From NCBI GenBank assembly GCA_951406725.2, contig OX597816.1, forward strand, positions 116,374,001 to 116,438,000: DNA of 64,000 nucleotides, given 5' to 3'. Below the pieces are notes generated by a model. The model did not search any database, was not told the origin of the DNA, and was given only the letters and a program-made list of their open reading frames with translations. Positions within the stretch are counted from its first letter, which is position 1; each line of letters opens with the position of its first letter. Shown piece by piece: positions 3,040 through 63,037 of this stretch. This DNA comes from Octopus vulgaris (Eukaryota). The translations under genes and the position numbers were made by a program.

Positions 3040-3516
3040 TGCCTGGAAGAGGTAGTGCTGCCCTGGGTCAACAGGAAGACACTATGTCTGGGAGCAGGAC
3101 TCTGCACCATGCAACGCAAGCAGGAGAACCCAGTCATGGCTGTCAGACAATTTCTGCGACCACATCACCCCTAACATCTGGCCACCTAACTCCTTAGACT
3201 GCAAACCCCCTTGATTGCCATGTGTGGGGCGCAGTTGAATGAGAGACCAGCAAAACTTCTTGTAAGATAAACTGAAAGCAAGGATATGGCAGCATTCACC
3301 AACTTAAGCAAGGAAGCTGTCCAGAAGACTTGCAGGAGATTCCGAAGACGTCTGGAGGCCGTAGTTGAAGCCAATGGCGATTTTATTCAATAAATTTACT
3401 CTTTAGTATTTCAAGATATTTTCATGTAATTTTAGTAAATATATCTGTTAAAATGAGATGTTAGAGTTATTTTCATTTTTGCGTAATTTAGACGACAATA
3501 TATTCACCGCACCCTG
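3040..3516 (+). mobile_element. Tc1/mariner DD37D (maT-type) transposon 3' fragment with right TIR
   Basis: Translation CLEEVVLPW...YVWEQDSAPCNASRRTQSWLSDNFCDHITPNIWPPNSLDC.PLD...RRFRRRLEAVVEANGDFIQ*, about 37 residues between the last two catalytic D; ends in ttcaccgcaccctg; same family as 41572-42467. Confidence 0.85.
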
Positions 3517-4876
3517 TTTATATTTGTCTGTATACAGAGCTTTGTAATGGGATGCGATGGTGTGATGTCATGGGCAGACTATTTGGTTCATCATCTTATT
3601 TTCTACTGAAAATGATGACTCTTGTCATCATTACACCCTAAATCACTTCCATATTAATCTTCCAAGTGTTAGACATTTTGCTTTCTCCTAACAGCAAACC
3701 AATCTCTCTTAATAATTCTTCAAATAATCATGCAACACGACATTGCATCAATAACAAAATTTGTTATGCCAATGACAGAAAATTCTATGTGGTTGCTATT
3801 TCTGCTAGAAATCAGCAACTAAATGATATTTAAAATATCACCAAAAAACAAATGATTTCTTTTAAAATCTAGTCCAAATTACGCGATACCTGCAGGTAGT
3901 GCTTCAATCAGTTAAGGTTGATTATACATTTGTATACGATTCTGTGCGCATGGGCAAGATTGTTTGTGGAAGACTGGCCGTTACCATGCAAATAAATCTT
4001 TCTTTTGTACAATACTGATGTTTCTCCAAGGGACAGGTCACCGAGCGACAACGAGACGGCTTGATACCAATACCATTGCAGGCGTTGTTGTCAGAACACA
4101 GAATCCTGAACCATTTTAACCGATAATGTAACTATTCCACCGGCCCGAATTAGTATTTTTTAAATTAACATTATGTGTGAAAACCAGCATTTACTCCATC
4201 GAGATTTGAACTCAGACGATATAAAGATGGAGCAAGTAACGCCAGATTTATATATATATCGAACGCTATACTGATACGTTGCTAATTCGTTGCCTTAGAA
4301 ATAAGAGTAATCGTCTAAAACAAATAGCAATCATTTTAACAATAACTATTCTTAGACAATTATTCAAATAGTTTCTTTAAAGGCAGATATACAGCATCTT
4401 CTGATTCTTTATCATTGAAATGTAACAGGCCACAATAACACAGCTGTACTGAAACTAGAACAGCTACAGTTAATACAGTCGTTTAATTTTGGGCCGACTA
4501 AATTTCAGCATATCAGAGTTACATGACCTAAGGTCAGCCTTCAAAATGTTTAAGTTCGCTACATGTCATGTTTTACAAGGTTTACTCAAACAAGGCTGAC
4601 GTGATTAACAACACTGACAAGTAATTAACTGTAGTAATCTGCAATGAAACTAACTGCAGCTAAAAATAATGCAGCAGCTGTAAACATCAGCCAATAAAAT
4701 ATCAAAAATAAATCTCAACACACACAAAAATCAAAAGCAATAAACTTAATAGCAACAGTGATTGTAAACCCATATATCATCAATGGCTGTAAACCCACAC
4801 AAACTACAACAATTTTAACAATGACAACACCTTTAGGTTATTTTAGTTGCGAAAAATGACAACAGTTAAAATAGTG

Positions 4877-8486: not shown

Positions 8487-8884
8487 TTGGTTTCAAAATT
8501 TGGCACCATGCCAGCAATTTTAGGGGAGGGTTAAGTCGAGTACATCGACCCCAGTGTGCCACTGGTACTTATTTCATCGACTCCGAAAGGCTGGAAGGCA
8601 AAGTCGACCTCGGCGGAATTTGAACTCAGAACGTAAAGACGGACGAAATACCTATTTCTTTATTGCCCAAAAGGGGCTAAACATAGAGGGGACAAACAAG
8701 GACAGACAAACGGATTAAGTCGATTAAATCGACCCCAGTGCGTAACTGGTACTTAATATATCGAGCCCGAAAGGATGAAAGGCAAAGTCGACCTCGGCGG
8801 AATTTGAACTCAGAACGTAGCGGCAGACGAAATACCGCTAAGCGTTTTGCTCAAAGTGGTAACGATCCTACCAGCTCGGCGCCT
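8487..8884 (-). mobile_element. Dimeric family-A SINE inserted into a family-C SINE
   Basis: Two copies of aaggcaaagtcgacctcggcggaatttgaactcagaacgta; flanked by the near-duplicate cagccgtatcacata / cagccatgtcacata. Confidence 0.85.
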
Positions 8885-9836: not shown

Positions 9837-9906
<70 letters not shown>

Positions 9907-9907
<1 letters not shown>

Positions 9908-10407
9908 GGTTTCGGTCCCCCAGCTAGCGATATATTGTATATAAAGGGCGCAGAACTTACACCGAAAACCAGCTGGCAGAGAATCCGACTGGGGTTAAAT
10001 TAATAGCAACATTCATCTGCCACTTTGATGTGGCTACTCGCTTTCTGTTTATTATACGTTACTACGCTGTCTCTTCTTCAGATTTTATAACCAGCTATTT
10101 TACTTGTTGCAAATCAGTCACCGATGGTCACTTGTTTACAATATATCGCTAGCAGAAGTCGATCTTAGCTATCATTCCACTGCACATGTGCACGCAGCTG
10201 ATATGAGCCAAATAGTTCGAAACTGGCCGGTTTTGCGATCCTGTAGCTGCTGGAGGGTAATATGGGTTCGCTCTCCCTGCTAGCGATATATTGTATATAA
10301 AAGATGCAGAGCTTGCGCCGAAAACTAGCTGGCGGAGAATCCGCCTGGGGTTAAACTAGTAGTAACATTCACCTGTTACTTTGATGTGGCTACTCGCTTT
10401 ATTGTTT
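9907..10407 (+). mobile_element. Element with ~140-bp imperfect direct repeats (period ~356) around an HHR-like motif
   Basis: gctagcgatatattgtatataaa...gagaatccg...ggggttaaa...ctttgatgtggctactcgcttt at ~9923 and ~10279; flanked by dinucleotide arrays. Confidence 0.8.
10193..10237 (+). ncRNA. Degenerate minimal type I hammerhead ribozyme (G8 apparently lost)
   Basis: CGCAG-CUGAU(-)AU-GAGC-caaaua-GUUC-GAAAC-UGGCCG-GUU-UUGCG: stem I CGCAG/UUGCG, stem II GAGC/GUUC, quasi-palindromic stem III. Confidence 0.55.
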
Positions 10408-11437: not shown

Positions 11438-11477
<40 letters not shown>

Positions 11478-11520
11478 CAATAATAATTCTCTAATAGAGA
11501 TATAGACAGTCACTGCTCGA

Positions 11521-11921
11521 TAACATAAGGGAATGAAGCGGAAACCACACACGGACCATGGTTTCAAGGTGTATTGCCTATCGTCAACGTGTGGTAGGCT
11601 TCCGCTTCCTCGACGAAATCTCACTCTGCAGGATGTTAAAGGTGTCCTTTAACCTGCAAAGGGAGATAATTCTATCCTGCAGAGTGAGATTTCGTCGAGG
11701 AAGCGGAGGCCTACCACACGTTGACGATAGGCAATACACCTTGAAACCATGGTCCGTGTGTGGTTTCCGCTCCATCGGGGAATTATCTCCCTTTGCAGGT
11801 TAAAGGACACCGTGATGGTGTCAAGCCTATCTGGCGACGTCGATGTTCGCCTGGGGCTAAATGCAACAGTAACACCCCACCACCCTCCCTGTCCCTAGAT
11901 ATTCAGATGGTGTCCCTTATG

Positions 11922-11924
<3 letters not shown>
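11521..11924. mobile_element. Element with interleaved inverted repeats (C-A-B-A'-B'-X-C') carrying an HHR motif on each strand
   Basis: A 11533-11634 / A' 11674-11775 (~102 bp); B 11641-11672 / B' 11780-11811 (32 bp); C taacataaggga / C' tcccttatgtta; lies between TA arrays. Confidence 0.9.
11715..11760 (+). ncRNA. Type I hammerhead ribozyme-like motif (C3U variant); an inverse copy lies on the - strand at ~11548-11593
   Basis: CACACG-UUGACGA-U-AGG-caauaca-CCU-U-GAAAC-CAUG-GUC-CGUGUG: perfect 6-bp stem I, palindromic stem III ACCAUGGU, GUC cleavage triplet. Confidence 0.7.
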
Positions 11925-11972
<48 letters not shown>

Positions 11973-13199: not shown

Positions 13200-16100
13200 A
13201 CACCTTATCAAACAAAAACACTCAGCTAAAATGCACAAAAGAGAATACCCATACAGTTAACTTATTTCGGGAAGAGACTGTGAACGACAAGAAACTCGAC
13301 CAAGACGAACTCAGCAATAACAAGCTGCAGCCACAATACGGACGACGAATATAAAATTCTAAAATCACAGTTTGCATCGAAGTTCAAGCAGACCTTCGCT
13401 ACTTGCATACATAAGACAATGTCCGAAAGAACAATACAAACTCTAGTCGGGGAAAAAATACCCAATGACCTGGTGTATTTGCGATTGACAAAATTGTGAA
13501 AGAACTAGCTCAAATTCAAATTCCCAGCTTTTGGACAATAAATGTCTTGCTTTATTATACTGCAGTAAACGTGCACCAATAGATGAGAGTAAAAGAGACC
13601 GTTCCAAAATATAATACTGAGCCAAAAATGAATTACCTCTCTCCAACATAACACCAACGGACTCAGGAAAAAGATAGGACAGTTGGGCATTATCATCAAA
13701 TGCAAAGCTGAATATGAATTCATGAATCACCAACTACGACTGCATGACAGATTCTCTAAATTTTATGGGAATTGCCGCAAAGAAACACTCACAGGCAAAC
13801 AAATCATCCATAAACATGATCTACGAGCGATAGGAGAAAGAATTCGTTGCAAAAAATTGCATGAACAAAAAACGATAAACTGCAAGTTAGCCCCAAACCC
13901 ATAAACTGTATATCGCAGTACGAAAGGTGATATCATCAAGGTAGTAAATGTTTATCCCCAGGAAAACTTAGAAACATTCTATCGGGGAATTTGGGATGTA
14001 AATAAAGAACACAGTCGTGATGCAGCTTGGTTAAACGAACTACGACGTGAGAATCTTCCAAAATTTATAACAACACTAGTGAAACACTTTTGACGGTTAT
14101 TATGAAACTGCAGAATTGAAGATCACTCGAAGAGTAAACTACTAGTATTAAAATAGTAAACTACTAGTATTAAAAAAAAAAATCATGTTTTGTAGGGAAA
14201 TTCTCACAGCCCTTCTTACAAATCAATGGTCGATGAGCTAGATGTACCAGATTGACTAACGGTTGCATAGACTACTATTTTCTCAAAGAACAAAGAGGCT
14301 CTTGTGGTCAAAAACTATAGGCCCTTAGCATGATTGAATGCTATATTCAAACTGTAAACAAGTTGTCTGAATTTTTACTCCAAGATCACTGCCAAACAAA
14401 TGATTTGATAAATAATGAACAGGCAAGAGGAAAGAAAGGAATCTGGGTCTGTTCTGAACAACTCCTCCTCGACAAAGCTTTCTTTAAGGAAACCAAACAA
14501 CATTGCCGTAATCTATTAACAATATGGCTACACTACAAGGCGTTCGATTCTGCGCCTCACCCATGGATGATAGAATCACTTCACCTTGCCAAAGTACCAG
14601 TTGCTAGAATGAATGTCATTGAAAGACTGACAACAACATGGTCCACACAGTTACCAATGACAACTCCTAAAGCAACACCTATTGTCAGAAACAGAATTAA
14701 AGCAACACCTATTGTCAGAAACAGAATTAAGCTTTCAATAGGTATATTCCAGGGTTACACTTTACCTGTACAACTCTGTTACGAAAATGCAAGGCTTCAT
14801 GCTGGGATATGCAGAAAAGAATAAAATTAATGTCACCTACTCCTTTTGTTGATGACTAAAGTTGTATTCTGTTAATATGAACATCAAGAGACAATTAGAA
14901 CCATTAATGTTTGGGCAAGATAAATGAAAGATTGCTTACCATAGAACATGTACATCAATGGCTTGTCTACCTCCCCTATCTCTAATGATGAAACCTATAA
15001 ATATCTCGGAATCAATGAGAATGTTACATACGTTGGTGCTGTGATTAAATCCAGAATATTAAAAGAGTAATTCTTCAGACCCCGGAAAATATGGAAGTCA
15101 GAGTTGTTTGCATTTAACAAGTCCATATCTAACAATGCTTTTACAGTGTCAGTACTAGTACCGACATTTGGGATATTGTACTGAACACTCGACGAGAGAT
15201 CCATAGTCTGGCCATCAATACTAGAAAGGTACTGACAACTTTCACATCAGCAGCCTCACCGGTAAAATCTATTGAGAGCTGAAGAGATGGCGGTAGTGGC
15301 ATAAGATCAGTCCAAACAGCTTTTGAATGTTGCATTGTATCACTCAAACAACACCCGCTGAAGGGTAATGAAAGAAATGAGTATATTACAAGCATACACA
15401 AAAATGAGAGCAACAACTTCAGAGGTGAACTTGTGAGCAGGTACTCTGAAGATACAACTGTCTCATGCGACCCTAAAGAGGCTAGAGTGACATATCTCAA
15501 AAGAAACGTGGAGGAGAAACGGCTATATTCCAGCAAAAAGCGATGCATGCGTACATATCACATAAACTAGAGGATAACAGTAGTATTTGCAGGAAGAGTA
15601 GACGCTCCTGGACCTGTTATAGATAAATTACATCCCGCCAATGATACACCTTTGCTATCCAGGAGCAGGAGACAGTTGCTAAATACCGAATAAAGAAGAC
15701 ACACTAAGATATCGCCAAAGCTCCATATTGTGATAGATGATGTCCACTCTGCAAAACCAACTGGCCTCAAATATTTACGAGATATTACCTGCTCTGAAGC
15801 TTGATATAGTTGCAAATACTATTTACAATGTATACATAAACGGCATGTCACAGCCAACATATATTCCTTTTAAAACAAAAATACTGGTGGAACACTCCAA
15901 TGAAAGCAGTAACTGTGTGCAAAAATAACAGACCTGATTTTGATCTGTGGGACAGGGAGCAAAATACATACATTGTTGTAGTGGTCAGCTTCCCTGCGGA
16001 TGTAAATGTACCATCAGCAGTCCGGGAAAAGAACATTTATTAATGCGAAACAGAGCTCTTGTAACTCTTACAATAAATTTTCATTTGTACCTATCGCGAT

Positions 16101-16469: not shown

Positions 16470-16959
16470 GAGGGGAAGCCAAAAATTATCTGCACTTTCG
16501 CCATAACATATCTTTATTATTGTCACACTGCCTTCTACGCATACATGATTATAGTTGGTGCTATTGTGATCATGTGATCTCCAACACTGGTATTGCAGAG
16601 TAAACATCTTCTATCACAACATGGAGCTTTGGCGATATCTTAGTGTGTCTTGTTTATTCGGTGGCTGAGCCTGATCGCGCCGCCAGTTTTCTTTTTGGCT
16701 TTACAGTGTAAACATGGCTGCTCCACTATCAATGTGCACCAAAGGAGAGCAAAGAGCAGTGATCCGGTTTCTCTGGTCGGAAGGTGTTTCAGGCGCTGAA
16801 ATTCATCGGAGGCTTTTAGTGCAATACGGAGACAGTGCACTACCGCGTAGAAGTGTGTATGAGTGGATCGAGAAGTTTAAAAGTGGCCTGACAATTGTGA
16901 TGCACGAGGAGGGAGTAGCACGCCCGTCAACCTCCACCACTGACGAGAAGATTCAGCAA
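16469..16959 (+). mobile_element. Mariner transposon 5' half (left TIR plus HTH DNA-binding domain)
   Basis: TA|cgaggggaagcc start; ORF 16714 MAAPLSMCTKGEQRAVIRFLWSEGVSGAEIHRRLLVQYGDSALPRRSVYEWIEKFKSG...RPSTSTTDEKI. Confidence 0.9.
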
Positions 16960-16969
16960 TATATATATT

Positions 16970-17944
16970 ATCAAGTAAGGCAGCAAGGGCACGAGCGTTG
17001 TCGTGTTGAAACATGTGATTCCGTTGACGGGCAAAGTATGACACAATGTGAGTCCTCAACACTTGTTCGATATAGCGAGCAGCGGTTACTCCATTGCTCT
17101 GGCCTTGGGCGATGTTTTGGAAGACCACCGGTTCAAGTTTCTGGTTGAGTGCAATCCCGCCCCATACCAGGATGCTCTGTTCTCCCCATGAGTCTCTCTC
17201 CACCACACAGCCATCGGCATATCGTTCACCCCTTTCTTCTCCAAACCCTAGCTCTGCCATCTGTCACAGAAATGCAATATCGACTTTCATCAGAGAAGAC
17301 TACAATCTTCTACTACTGATATCACCGGTCCTGATGGGTTTTTTTTAGCCCGCTGCGGACGTGCCTGTTGATGACGATCTGTGACGTCCTAGCCAGACGT
17401 CGACAAGACAATTTGAAAGATCTCAGCCGGTGCAGGTGACGATCTTGACGTGCCATTATAACCTTCGGCGGCCACTGCGTGGACGATCGTCCGTCACGTT
17501 TGTGACATTGTATCGTTCCCTCAGCTGCTCAGTTGTCCGAATACTGCAGTTCAGGTCATTGGCAATGACCCATGGACGTTGACCAGCATGGAGATGTCCG
17601 ATGGTTTGCTGCCTCTGATTTCGTGTCAGTGTTGGCATGCTTGCTGCGTTCGGGAAATGAGTGACAGGCTGGTAAATTTGGGTACCTTTTATACCCAATG
17701 AGTTTTTCAAGTGCATCATGCTTTGCATAAAAATGCGTTCGCAAGCATTACCATGTTTACGAAAAGTGAGCGAGTTCGAAACCTATCTGTAACCCTTATG
17801 TTTTCAAAAGAGAGTGGTGTTGTGGGTCAGTGACATCTTCCTGATGTCAAATTACCTAGAAACGTGATAAAATCCATATAATCTCAATGTTGTGTGTGAA
17901 ACAAATAAGCTTTTGCAGTGCGATGTTTCTTTTGTAATTCAGTG
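16970..17944 (-). mobile_element. Tc1-type transposon, 3'-truncated
   Basis: TA|cactgaattacaaaagaaac TIR on -; MPTLTRNQRQQTIGHLHAG...DDRPRSGR; ERYADGCVVERDSWGEQSILVWGGIA...YIEQVL...FQHDNARA. Confidence 0.9.
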
Positions 17945-26885: not shown

Positions 26886-27630
26886 GTACATCTATAAGAC
26901 AGCTAATTGCCAGAGCTGCGAGATCAGCGTATATAGATCGCGTTATAGTAATCATTCTACTTCTCTGTAATGTGAGTTCAAATCTTGACAAGGTTAACTT
27001 TCTTTTTCAACCCTCAACGTCATAAGCAACCTTACCAGTCCCATGCATGCACCGTGATGGTGTCGATTCTTCTGTTTCTTTCGTTCTTAATTTATTCCGG
27101 AAGAAAGCAGCTGTAGTCAGATCAGGACAAGCATGATTGCTGCCAAATCTACATAAGTGGGCAAAACACGGTGTATATCAGGATGGCACTCCTACAAATC
27201 TAAACATAAAGTTAAAGGTTTAAATCAGGGCAAAGCTAAACACACAATAACACACACGCACATACGAGCATAAATATCTGTTTGTTTACACGTGTGTGTG
27301 AGTGTGTGGGGGTGTGTATGTGTGTGTGTATGTGTGTGTGCGTGTCTGTGTGTGTGTGTGTTTGTATGTGTGTGTGTGTATTTCCCTGTATGAACATTTG
27401 TAGGCATGTATGCGAGCGTATGTGTGGGAAAGCAGTAATAGTGGGCATATAATGCACAATTTACGATGTCAATTTTTCTAAATATATGTTGCAATTAATT
27501 ATCTATTGTATGTAAAGTGTGTATTGGTACCATTTATGATGTGCTCATACGAATGTGTGCTTTTATATTCATGAGGTTTAACTACGTGTACTGATATATG
27601 TGTGTATATATGTGTGTGTGTGTGTATATG

Positions 27631-39748: not shown

Positions 39749-40170
39749 CTTTATTGCCCACAGGGGAGGGGACAAACAAGGACAGACACGCGGATTAAGT
39801 CGATTATATCGACCCCAGTGCATAACTGGTACTTAATTTATCGACCCCGAAAGGATGAAAGGCCAAGTCGACCTCGACGGAATTTGAACTCAGAATGTAT
39901 ATATACATGCACAATGAGCTTCTTTCAGTTTCTTATTTCATATTTATTTACTGCCCACAAGGGGTTACACAAAGAGGGTCAGACAAGGACAGACAAAATG
40001 ATTAAGTCGATTACGTAGACCCCAGTGCGTAACTGGTGCTTAATTTATCCACCCCGAAAGGATGAAAATCAAAGTCGACCTCGGCGGAATTTGAACTCAG
40101 AACGTAACGACAGACGAAATATTGCTAAGCATTTCGCCCGGCGTGCTAACGCTTCTGCTAGCTCGCCGCG
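39743..40170 (-). mobile_element. Two family-A SINE copies
   Basis: gattaagtcgatt...ccccagtgc...cccgaaaggatgaaa...gaatttgaactcagaa occurs twice. Confidence 0.85.
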
Positions 40171-40399
40171 TTTCAACTTCTATCAACCAAATTCTTTCAG
40201 TTTCTATCAACCAAATTCACTTACAAAGCTTTGATCGGATCAAGGTTTTAGCAGAAGACACTTGCTCAAGGTGCCACGGCGTGGGGCTGCACCCTGAACC
40301 ATACCTTTCAGAAGCAAGCTTCTTACCACGCAGTAACGATATACATATATATACGCACACACATTACTTACATTATTTGTCCTAATCTTGTTTCTTGGT

Positions 40400-40445
40400 A
40401 ACACAACGTTTCGGCTAATATACTCGCCACCCTTCATCAGGTGTC
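40400..40445 (-). ncRNA. Minimal type I hammerhead ribozyme
   Basis: GACAC-CUGAUGA-A-GGGUGG-cgaguaua-UUAGCC-GAAAC-GUU-GUGUU; core intact, one mismatch in stem II, stem III is the ACGU palindrome. Confidence 0.72.
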
Positions 40446-40563
40446 ATGGGGAAATTTCAAACCTGGGTTCTCATTCCTCAGTGAAACTGGTCAAGTCAAT
40501 AAACATCTCTAAAAGATCTTTGCATTTTCAAACCTTTTTTTATATATATATATATATATATAT

Positions 40564-41539: not shown

Positions 41540-41571
41540 GTACTGTATGTACACACACACACATATATATA

Positions 41572-42467
41572 CAGGGTGCGGTGAATAAACTGCTCTTAAA
41601 ATTACGCAAAAATGAAAATAACACTGACATCTCATTTTAACAGACGTATTTAGCAAAATTGCATAAAAATATCTTGAAATACTAAAAAGTAAATTTATTC
41701 AATAAAATTGCCATTGGCTTCAATCACGGCCTCCACACGACTTCTGAATCTCCTGCAACTCTTCTGCAACTCAATAGTCTCCTTGTTTGAGTTGGTGAAT
41801 ACTGCCATAATCCTTGCCTTCAGTTCATATTTGGTGTTACAAGGGATGTTGTTGATCTCTCACTCACCTGCACCCCATACATCATAACCAATGCAGCCTG
41901 GGGAGTTAGGTGGCCAGATGTTAGGGGTGATGTGGTCGAAGAAATTGTCTGACACCCATGACTGGGTTCTCCTGCTTGTGTGGCATGGTGCAGAGTCCTG
42001 TTGCCAGACATAGGGTCTTCCAGCAGCCACTCTATTTACTCAGAGCAGCTCTACCTCCTCCAGGCACTTGATGTAGGCCATCGTGTTGAGTTTGAGGCTG
42101 TATGGGAAGATGAATGGCGGCACAACATCGCCATCACTAGTGATCAGTCCAACACCATGATGTTCACTGGATATTTGATTTTTATCACTCTCGGTGCAAG
42201 TCCTTAGACTCCACTGTCCTCAGATTGCAGTCTTCAGATTGACACCCAAACACTCTGAAATGTTCATATTGAAGCTTCCGGCATGAATGCCAAGCGGTAC
42301 AGCAAGGTGTTTCCAGATTTCTGACAGAATGAATTGCGTCATAGTGCTGTTTTTCTTACAGATTGCTTCCAACTGACCCTACTGTACTAAGCAGTAGACA
42401 AAATCAAAAACAAACAATGCACGAAATTTATAATAGAAAATGTTGATAATTTACCCATCGCACATTG
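41572..42467 (-). mobile_element. Internally deleted DD37D (maT-type) transposon with both ends
   Basis: TA|cagggtgcggtgaat ... ttacccatcgcacattg|TA; minus strand encodes YVWQQDSAPCHTSRRTQSWVSDNFFDHITPNIWPPNS; homologous to 3040-3516. Confidence 0.87.
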
Positions 42468-47264: not shown

Positions 47265-47749
47265 GTAAACTCATTACCAGTTCAAATTTGCATCAGGCAT
47301 ATTTGAACCCATAAGAAAGTTATTCATTGTATTTTGTCGTAGAGAAAATTTCTCACAAGACAGTTTGAAGCACTTCCTTGCTAGACTGATGGATGCATGC
47401 CTTTTCAAGGAGTTATCTCCTCTTCAGCATCAGATACTGGAAGAAGGTGTGTCAGACTGACTTTATTATGATGGATCTGCTGATTAGCACAACCAGTCAC
47501 AGCACACTGAAAAGTTATCTCATGCCAGTCTATCACATCTTCCCCTTCTAATGCATGATATTGAAGAGGAGACAACTAATCCGAAATACACCCATCTCTC
47601 AGTCTGGTCAGGAGATGCTTCAAACTGACTTAGTGTGTTTACACCTATTTGTCTACACTGTGAAATTTTGTCTATGACAAAATACAGTAAATGGCTTTCT
47701 TAGAGGTTTGAATATCTCGAGTATAATTGAACTGATAAAGAGTTTATAT
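47265..47749. mobile_element. Old ~480-bp imperfect palindromic (fold-back/MITE-like) element
   Basis: Nested pairs: taaactc/gagttta, tgtattttgtcgtaga/tctatgacaaaataca, cagtttgaagca/tgcttcaaactg, agttatctcctcttca/tgaagaggagacaact. Confidence 0.75.
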
Positions 47750-49299: not shown

Positions 49300-51612
49300 A
49301 TGATGATCATGATCATCTTCATCATCGTTGACGTCGTTTAATGCCTGCTTTCCATGCTGGCATGGGTTGGATGGTTTAACTGAGAACTCGCAAGCAGGTA
49401 GGATGCACCAGGCTCCAATCTGATATGGCAAGGTTTCTACAGCTAGATGCCCGACTTAAACCATTCTGAGAGCATAGTGGATGCATTTATGTGCCACCAG
49501 CATGGGTGCCAATCAGGCAGCACTGGCATTGGCCATGCTTCAATGGTGCTTTCTACATGCCACTGGCAGGGGTGCCAGTCAGGCAGCACTGGCATCAGCC
49601 ATAAGTGTAATTCAACAGGCCTTCACAAGCACAGCATATTGCCCAACAACAGAAGGGTGCTTTTAAATGGGCCAGTTATGCGATACTAGCATCGACCACG
49701 ACTACGATCTCACTTGGCTTGCTGGGTCTTCTCAAGCACAGCACATCTCTAAGGGTCAAGTCGCTTGTCATTGCCTCAGTGAGGCTCAACATTCAAAGCT
49801 CATGCTTCACCACAGCATTCCATGTCTTACTGGGTTCGCCTCTTCCACAGGTTCCCTCCACTGTTAGGGTGTGACACATTTTCACATAGCTGTCCTCAGC
49901 CATATGCATCACATGACCATGCCAAAACAGTAGTCTCTCTTGTACACCACATCTGATGCTGCTTATGTCCAGGGCACAATTACTCTGTCATGTATGCACA
50001 CTGACATTACACATCCAGCAGAGCACACTAACTCCATTTCTTTCAAGGCTACGCATGTCCTCCACAGTCACAGCCCATATTTCATTGCCACGTAGCATGG
50101 CTGTTTGTACACAGGTATCATACAGTCTACCTTTCACTCTGAGCGAGAAGCCTTTTGTTACCAGCAGAGGTAGTAGCTCTCTGAGCTTTGCCCAGGCAGT
50201 TCTTATTCTAGCAGCTATGATCTCAAAGCATCCACCCCAGCTACTGATTTGGTCACCTAGGCAATGGAAGCTATGAACAACTTCTAGTTTTTTCCCCTGG
50301 CATGTGATGGAAACTGTTTCCTGTACATCTTCAATGTTTATTACCCCTGTGCATCTGCCACACACAAAAACTATCTTCCCAGTTTACCTTCCTTTGATAT
50401 TGTTGCACCCCTTATGTGTCCTTAGCTTACACTGGGTACAACTTATGAAGTCTCTACCTACACCTTTTCTACAGATCAATCACAGCTATCTACCTGAAGG
50501 GATTTGTGATTTATCCCCCTTCTTACTGACTAAGACTTTGGCCTTTGCTAGGTTAACTCTAAGGCCCTTCAATTCTAGGCCTTGCTTCCACACCTGAAAC
50601 TTCTCTAGTTCTGGTAGTGATTCAGCGCTTAGAGCAAGGTCATCAGTATAGAGGAGCTCCCAGCAGCTGTCTTACCAGAAATATAGCATCAGTGGTGCTT
50701 CTCCCTGGCACAAACCCAAACTGCATCTCATTTAAACTAATTTTCATCCTAATTAGCTGGGTTATGACCCTCTCTGTGACTTTCATCACCTGATCCGACA
50801 ATTTGATACTTTTGTAATTATTTCTATCTAAGACACCACCTTTACCTTTATTGCAGTTCACTATGGTACTGCTACACCAGTTGTTGGGTATGACTCCTTT
50901 GTGTATCACCTGGTTGACTATATGGGTGACTAGACTGTAGCCTACATCACCAGATATTTTAAGCATCTCAGCAGTGATTCCTGATGGGCTGGGTGCTTTC
51001 CCTGTCTTCATACTCTTAATTGCTTTATCTACCAAGGTACTGTCAATTTTGATAGCTGGTCCCACTGTTGGGTCGACATTTGGCAGACTCTCTTTCTCCC
51101 ATTCATTCTCTTCATTTAGCAACCTTTCATAGCATCTCCAAGTCTCTCTTTTTGCAGAATCATTAAATGCAAGTGAGCCATCATCCATGCGGACACATTT
51201 CTCACCTATTACATTGAAATTTTCTCTCACATACTGTCTTGCAATTCAAAACACTTCAAGTTGCTGATCCTCATGATGCTGAACATTGGCAAATATTTCC
51301 TTATCTGTTTTCCCTCTGGCTAACTAAATCTGTTTCCTAACTTCCCTTCTGACGATCTGATACAGTTCCCTGCTACCAAAACACTTCCAGTCCTTCCATG
51401 CCTGTTTCTTTTCCTTAATGGCTTTAACAACTACATCGTTCCACCACCATGTTGCATTAGGTCGAGAGGAAACTTTGCATCAGCCACAGATCTGGTCGGT
51501 AACCCTCAACAGGTTGTCCCGTAGGAACCTCCACTTGTCTCCCACATTATGTGATTTTATATCCTCCTCTTTTTCATCAAAGGCTTCAAGCATTACGTCT
51601 CTAAATCTCTGT
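49300..51612 (-). mobile_element. RTE-clade LINE, 5'-truncated, internally deleted, with 3' UTR and (GAT)n tail
   Basis: ORF 50643-51230 KAIKSMKTGKAPSPSGITAEMLK...NYKSIKL...QFGFVPGRSTTDAIFLVRQL; WELLYTDDLAL; ORF 49988-50365 FHCLGD...ARIRTAWAK...KGRLYDTCV. Confidence 0.92.
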
Positions 51613-62592: not shown

Positions 62593-62805
62593 ATCGTTAG
62601 CACACTGGGCGAAATGCTTTGCGGTATTTCGTCCGCCGCTGCGTTCTGAGTTCAAATTCCGCCGAGGTCGACTTTGCCTTTCATTCTTTTGGGGTCGATA
62701 AATTAAGCACCAGTTACGCACTGGGGTCGATGTAATCGACTTAATACCTATGTCTGTCCTTGTTTGTCCCCTCTATGTTTAGCCCCTTGTGGGTAGTAAA
62801 GAAAC
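62593..62805 (+). mobile_element. Family-A SINE, well preserved
   Basis: aatcgttagcacactgggcgaaatgc...gttctgagttcaaattccgccgaggtcgactttgcctttcat...ggggtcgataaattaagcacc. Confidence 0.9.
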
Positions 62806-63037
62806 AGCTGTAAGATATAGTGTATATTTATATTTATATCTATTTATATTTATTTATTTATATCCTCTTATAATGATTGTACTTATTGTATTGTATTACT
62901 CATTCATGTACGCTGTTTTGTTATATATTTTTACGTTTAACCTTAATGTTCTTATGTAGTGGTTTAATAAAGTATGTGATTGGGTATTATCTGGTAGTTG
63001 ATTAATGATTTAGATGTATTTCTCCATTTTCTTATTT

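Follow-up and report, generated by a model that had tools for sequence, protein, structure and literature searches.

How can an insertion come to hold two hammerhead ribozyme motifs that lie on opposite strands and point away from each other? The closest described systems are the Penelope-like elements with their pseudo-LTRs (pLTRs), the retrozymes and the viroid-like RNAs. Penelope-like elements are described with an inverted 5′-truncated copy adjoining the 5′ end, with a tail of 30-40 bp on one end and with a target bias for (TA)n (Craig et al., 2021; PMC8557442). Inverted pLTRs, one of which carries a 31-bp tail, are also on record, and palindromes at head-to-head inverted junctions are taken there as traces of self-priming and template jumps (Arkhipova et al., 2013; PMC3846280). 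The hammerheads of Penelope-like elements are minimal type I motifs with a small palindromic helix III, which come in pairs 100-700 bp apart on opposite strands, are of low activity, and show covariation of U3 with A8 (Cervera and de la Pena, 2014; PMC4209133). Work with a purified Penelope-like enzyme showed that it cleaves AT-rich DNA, with extension on both strands, and the same report describes insertion without hammerhead cleavage, an internal start and a tail (Frangieh et al., 2024; PMC11167929). Retrozymes of animals are tandem repeats of 150-450 bp, and a U-U at stem II occurs in the axolotl motif HHR_Amex2 (Cervera and de la Pena, 2020; PMC7229834). According to a preprint, retrozymes derive from pLTRs and have units of 51-972 bp, and eight of nine tested dimers remained without cleavage (Li, Clavereau and Pollet, 2026; bioRxiv 10.64898/2026.07.22.740005). 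Further literature for the comparison is found in PMC6765202, PMC3088659 and PMC7761336.

Here, we describe a locus in a window of 64,000 nucleotides, i.e. the whole stretch of Octopus vulgaris DNA that was analysed. We consider it probable, at roughly 80%, that this locus arose by one Penelope-type retrotransposition with local template switches, which left a (TA)n tract with two 5′-truncated copies in head-to-head orientation. The parent would be of Penelope type by its architecture; no reverse transcriptase (RT) gene is linked to it, and the term is thus meant in the sense that it works like such an element, not that it is a proven member. It could have been the end of either a pLTR or a retrozyme. 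Seen in this manner, the locus would serve as a worked example of how Penelope-type copying leads to inverted, palindrome-joined insertions.

Layout of the insertion

The first-pass annotation had read the repeat blocks in the order C-A-B-A′-B′-X-C′ between 11521 and 11924. The order holds, every block lying where it had been placed, and of the extent the anatomy stands while the end has to be moved, because C′ runs to 11925, one base further (Table 1).

Table 1. Features of the insertion and of its flanks, in positions of the window
Feature	Position	Strand	Basis or remark
(TA)n tract, left flank of likely target site	11441-11476	n/a	sequence
43-nt non-repetitive stretch at 3′ end of the inverted copy; candidate Penelope-type tail	11477-11519	-	
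Block C, 13-nt copy of the element 3′ end	11520-11532	-	exact inverted match to 11913-11925
Block A, inverted copy of A′	11533-11634	-	sequence comparison; 100/102 nt identical
Six junction bases, which close the apparent circle	11635-11640	-	exact reverse complement of 11799-11804
Block B, inverted copy of B′	11641-11672	-	sequence comparison; 32 nt exact
5′-truncated family copy, colinear A′-B′-X-C′	11673-11925	+	contigs of four runs align from 11673
Block A′	11674-11775	+	sequence comparison
Block B′	11780-11811	+	exact inverted match to B
Block X, family sequence 3′ of the rod	11812-11912	+	family contigs
Block C′, 3′ end of the plus copy, likely start of reverse transcription	11913-11925	+	role inferred
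(TA)n tract, right flank of likely target site	11923-11969	n/a	sequence
Predicted long rod with hammerhead at its tip	11676-11799	+	45 Watson-Crick and 4 G-U pairs in 11674-11811
Type I hammerhead motif	11715-11760	+	descriptor scans; predicted cut after 11754
Type I hammerhead motif, inverted copy	11548-11593	-	descriptor scans; predicted cut at 11554

Both ends of the insertion lie in (TA)n, and a target-site duplication is unreadable within such a microsatellite. The 43 non-repetitive bases at 11477-11519, of which the window holds no second copy, are probably also part of the insertion; they could instead be host DNA. The two arms start from the same 13-nt end (C and C′), and one family contig ends in the same letters as C′. 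A single T (11673) separates B from A′, four bases separate A′ from B′, and the bases 11635-11642 at the centre repeat 11799-11806 in direct orientation and are at the same time the inverted counterpart of 11646-11653. Directly after the rod, 11806-11822 on the plus strand can form a 6-bp hairpin, and the end of B coincides exactly with the uppermost base of the 5′ arm of this hairpin (11811). The only joint listed among the contigs described below breaks at the same base, with a 41-nt skip from 11811 to 11853 in one contig of run X4, whose short side of 25 letters makes it weak. It is possible that 11806-11822 is a hotspot of switching.

With the pLTRs of EN+ Penelope-like elements the locus shares a type I hammerhead with a short palindromic helix III, the core of which deviates, and with the elements themselves it shares 5′-truncated copies, a head-to-head inverted copy whose join carries a palindrome, and two opposite-strand motifs within a few hundred bases; the 43-nt stretch at the 3′ end of one copy would correspond to their tail, and the (TA)n flanks to their likely target. 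Unlike them, the copy here is non-coding and no RT/GIY-YIG gene is seen; the hammerhead sits at the tip of a rod of ~125 nt, whereas the published pLTR palindromes, in the portions of the literature used here, measure 18 and 38 bp; the core combines U3 with G8, theirs being C3-G8 or the reported U3-A8; and the inverted arm is a mosaic of three pieces.

The repeat family in public sequencing runs

Part of 11480-11924 is present in 20 of 24 listed public sequencing runs. Fourteen of the 24, which come from nine studies under six organism labels, hold 0.21-0.39 of the 33 words of the locus; the runs left out are six with a word share under 0.2 and four with none. Contigs of four runs (three studies, three organism labels) were compared against 11635-11924, and 154, 309, 308 and 12 of them aligned, respectively, with many variant sites. 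Summed contig depth varies along the element and can neither rank its parts nor give a copy number. That run X10 is RNA would be a guess, and none of the listed runs is recorded as RNA.

The repeat is a linear, multi-copy family. Among the contigs listed, 3, 3, 2 and 2 per run have a loose end before 11673, and in all four runs this is one AT-rich sequence ending ...CTATATATGAA, which differs from the circle-closing bases in every listed case. Since the family continues before 11673, where 26 letters 5′ of A′ are all that is seen of it, both copies in the window are cut at the base of the rod or one base from it. On the other side, the passage from B′ to X (11811/11812) is crossed by 3 of the 32 listed pieces (records 21 and 22 of run X2, record 13 of run X10), each of which extends at least 31 letters to either side, and in one contig the alignment continues to 11924, interrupted by three small insertions; therefore, X and C′ are part of the family as well. 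Contigs drop rare forms, and for this reason the blanks at 11635-11664, without contig depth in the four runs, and at the left end, over which these runs have no contig, and with them the absence of the B′-A′ join and of the locus's own centre join from the contigs, are not counted as evidence. Many contigs match only at 11830-11880 on the plus strand and carry other upstream sequence, which suggests from the sequences that several subfamilies share this part of X. A search of the window with nhmmer gave no third family copy, and around a 15-nt match at 27050 there is no further likeness.

Could the inverted arm be an artefact of assembly or library preparation, i.e. a fold-back chimera? Inverted structures of such a kind trouble assemblies, according to PMC8557442, and half of the words of the locus are reached by none of the 24 listed runs. 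However, the two arms differ at two sites, 11708 and 11772, and the family knows both differences: at 11772 all four runs have T, as the minus copy does, so that the C of the plus copy is private, while at 11708 both letters are present. In addition, four separate joins and the duplicated 13-nt end exceed what a simple fold-back chimera would give, and we regard an artefact as very unlikely. As the A of the minus copy at 11708 is found in the family, the two arms may stem from two templates.

The rod, its hammerhead and the apparent circle

The long rod that had been proposed for A′ and B′ is well borne out by computation: 11674-11811 folds at -62.3 kcal/mol (z -6.44), and none of 200 shuffles folds as well. 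On the minus strand, 11672-11533 likewise folds with the 8-bp junction hairpin drawn before. Eleven substitution rows of the family fall into 11674-11811, four of them on predicted pairs (three kept, one broken) and seven on unpaired positions; the variants 11772 T and 11800 A stabilise the rod by 1.9 and 4.3 kcal/mol, and two-sided compensatory changes are absent from the rows listed.

Hammerheads were sought with two descriptors, whose core motifs are general knowledge. The type I descriptor matches at 11715-11760 on the plus strand and at 11593-11548 on the minus strand, which confirms the pair of motifs on opposite strands in the first-pass annotation. In shuffled windows (n=100) it gives 0.05 matches per 64 kb, or 0.01 if a palindromic stem III is required, and the second descriptor gives 0.07 matches per 64 kb. 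The motif at 11715-11760 has a stem I of 6 bp, a core with U3 and G8, a stem II that consists of a U-U followed by 3 bp, and a stem III that is an 8-nt palindrome (11746-11753). Thus, the first-pass annotation was right on the U at core position 3 and on the U-U with which stem II begins, and its doubt on activity was fair, as U3 stands opposite G8 and not A8. It had also proposed a comparison with Rfam, which does not call a hammerhead at the locus: between 9000 and 15000 there are 31 matches at E up to 5 and none at the gathering score, the top matches on the inverted repeat being generic microRNA hairpin models, and over the whole window, too, no match attains the gathering score. By computation, the tip of the rod has an active-like fold at -4.7 kcal/mol against a best fold at -12.6 kcal/mol, the palindrome of stem III allows a duplex of -11.2 kcal/mol between two molecules, and in the whole locus, on either strand, A folds onto A′ (-280 kcal/mol).

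Is the deviating core a matter of this copy or of its relatives? In three runs C at core position 3 is the minority of summed depth (162/1014, 532/13697 and 1161/49206), and in the small fourth run it has 11/16. This C3 is accompanied by C at core position 4 at matching depth, and no variant of G8 is among those listed for the four runs. There is thus a subfamily in which core positions 3 and 4 (11721-11722) are both C, and no listed variant is a canonical core. Since U3 dominates summed depth in three runs, it is a trait of the family and not decay at the locus. Its dominance opposite G8 is mildly odd. A literature search, a weak one, found no earlier description of U3 with G8, and Lunse et al. 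2017 may cover it. For ribozyme research it is of interest that the rod is kept in the family though most copies have U3 opposite G8.

It is easy to see how the blocks invite the drawing of a circle. Joined in both orders, they give the closed rod of the first-pass annotation, a unit of 144 nt that folds at -61.9 kcal/mol as a circle (z -7.2 against 200 shuffles; 78% paired), and its headline reading was that the locus is an integrated cDNA of such a viroid-like RNA. A related possibility would be that the family has a 144-nt rod-like circular RNA, of which the minus copy is a one-turn cDNA made after a jump from the linear RNA. In agreement with this, just 18 of 500 random 6-mers close the rod equally well or better, the minus copy is almost exactly one turn (140 of 144 nt, 4 nt short), which a circular template would explain, and animal retrozymes yield self-paired circles of ~170-400 nt (PMC7229834). 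However, closure brings no energy gain over the open rod (-62.3 kcal/mol), and the six closing bases extend a 2-bp stem on a 3-nt loop as a fold-back copy of B′, which gives an equally good fit. Being a copy of B′, the join carries no information beyond B′, and any rod whose open end folds back would be drawn as a closed one, which explains the earlier impression of a circle. The contigs have another 5′ context before A′ and continue from B′ into X, and the minus copy begins in C, which lies outside the 144-nt unit and ~100 nt past B′ in the linear family. A circle made by hammerheads requires two same-strand motifs one unit apart, while those found here are on opposite strands and cannot cut out a monomer; the unit has one hammerhead in sense and none in antisense by the descriptor, and in three runs U3 opposite G8 accounts for the larger part of the summed contig depth. 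The shortfall of 4 nt would be explained equally by a polymerase that meets its own duplex on a linear template. We therefore find a circular template most improbable, and the headline reading is not upheld; the apparent 144-nt viroid-like circle is probably a by-product of the join and not a real RNA. Just as doubtful is the idea that a fold-back error on a Penelope-type rod gave rise to a hammerhead-tipped circle of 144 nt in cells which was then reverse-transcribed into the genome, an idea that would, if true, make the locus a snapshot of a minimal viroid-like RNA arising from a retroelement end and link such ends to the origin of viroid-like RNAs.

With non-LTR retrozymes the locus has in common that it is non-coding, multi-copy and highly self-paired with a type I hammerhead, and the U-U at the base of stem II is as in the axolotl HHR_Amex2. 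It differs from them in that there is no head-to-tail repeat with two same-strand hammerheads and in that the core is non-canonical. As for viroid-like and HDV-like hammerhead RNAs (PMC7761336, PMC8781251), a closed rod can be drawn here too, in silico only; in contrast to them, the opposite polarity of the unit is without a ribozyme, the sequence belongs to a genomic repeat of greater length, and the closing hairpin is a fold-back copy. The locus thus lacks the tandem arrangement of a retrozyme and the ribozymes in two polarities of a viroid-like RNA. For searches of viroid-like RNAs this means caution, since a long hairpin with a fold-back at its base looks like a circular permutation.

A possible route to the insertion and its surroundings

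How, then, may the insertion have come about? The second reading of the first-pass annotation, by which templates were switched on a Penelope-type end with a long hairpin, agrees with the findings, and the following order of events can be imagined. The family is linear, A′-B′-X-C′, and its part A′+B′ is predicted to be a rod. A Penelope-like RT/GIY-YIG enzyme acting in trans might nick (TA)n, and copying of the RNA would begin at the C′ end and stop where the rod has its base (11673), which would give the plus copy. The second arm would have been made either by priming the other strand as well or by copying the new cDNA after it had folded back, two processes that the sequence cannot tell apart. 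Jumps of the polymerase would leave C, A and B in the rearranged order of this arm, and the rod, which holds the start of A′ beside the end of B′, would guide these jumps. A gap of 4 nt lies between where A ends and where B begins, and this would suit a polymerase that ran into its own duplex. Next, the last two bases of the B′ end would pair across a 3-nt loop and be extended by six bases, and the extended end would be joined to the start of A′, a final joining in which host repair may have taken part. As for the product, the hammerhead is predicted to be weak or silent as a monomer, any cutting being expected from a dimer via the palindrome, and in a transcript across the locus A would pair with A′ and bury the hammerhead.

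It might be asked whether the rearranged centre owes anything to an RT of the element at all. It could have been made by host end-joining of the polymerase theta type with snap-back synthesis, during or after the joining of the two truncated copies. Polymerase theta is reported to extend stem-loops primed by 2 bp (PMC11292364), and templated insertions are reported to mark synthesis-dependent end joining (PMC2943611 and PMC5728401); the joins 11634/11635 and 11672/11673 show little or no microhomology. On the other hand, end-joining leaves unexplained why the left arm starts with the 3′ end of the element (C) and has 43 extra nucleotides, palindromes at junctions are already typical of Penelope-like insertions, and such a process alters merely the actor in the last joining step. 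We find this origin of the centre unlikely, and prefer Penelope-type retrotransposition with local template switches.

As to an enzyme, no RT or GIY-YIG sequence linked to the family was found in what is available, namely a frame of 49 codons and the 26 letters 5′ of A′. The locus has no long ORF, and the 49-codon frame (11749-11898) was rejected as coding, with 14 candidates but none at E up to 1, no Pfam match, and a chance of ~0.13 for such an open frame. Exact-pattern scans of metagenomes, viral contigs and prokaryote genomes gave no match.

The window holds further motifs of a similar kind. At 9905-10400 on the plus strand, after a (TA)n tract, there is a partial tandem with a period of 356 nt, which is of the kind of the non-LTR retrozymes. 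It has a degenerate hammerhead-like motif at ~10193-10250 (Rfam HH9, E 0.36, below threshold) inside a rod at 10136-10300 (z -4.2; none of 200 shuffles as good). This second element resembles a retrozyme-type unit and may be seen as distantly analogous to the locus, and for ribozyme research it is of interest that a second family in the window shares the layout of a hammerhead on a rod. X has a weak likeness to its post-rod stretch (4 and 12 of 2000 mononucleotide shuffles as good), for which the regions were picked after the fact. The two rods are not alike in sequence (1014/2000 shuffles as good), nor is the 43-nt stretch of the minus copy significantly like the spacer of the second element (1237/2000 shuffles as good). 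A match between the upstream loose end of the family and this spacer was dismissed as not significant (398/2000 shuffles as good).

At ~40395-40446 on the minus strand, a minimal type I hammerhead with a canonical core and a 6-nt palindrome lies in a short piece of unique sequence that follows a TA tract. Two stricter descriptors missed it, and it is likely another truncated Penelope-type end. Another match of the type I descriptor, at ~47388-47433 on the minus strand, has a canonical core and a non-palindromic stem III, and may be there by chance. Repeat ends that bear hammerheads look commonplace in this genome.

The window has 21-43% GC per 2 kb and dense TA, CA, ATAG and ATT repeats; its character is eukaryotic, and its repeats are reminiscent of octopus genomes. 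It contains a fragment of a Mariner/Mos1 transposase HTH at 16675-17148 on the plus strand (Pfam HTH_48, E 4.9e-08), and the frames 14321-14824 (+) and 50643-51245 (-), which have no Pfam match at E 0.01, were read by eye as what we take to be fragments of non-LTR reverse transcriptases. Dispersed repeats of 180-215 nt that are 87-90% alike (8652-8866, 62593-62807 and 39976-40154; 3322-3531 and 41557-41766) are probably SINE-like families.
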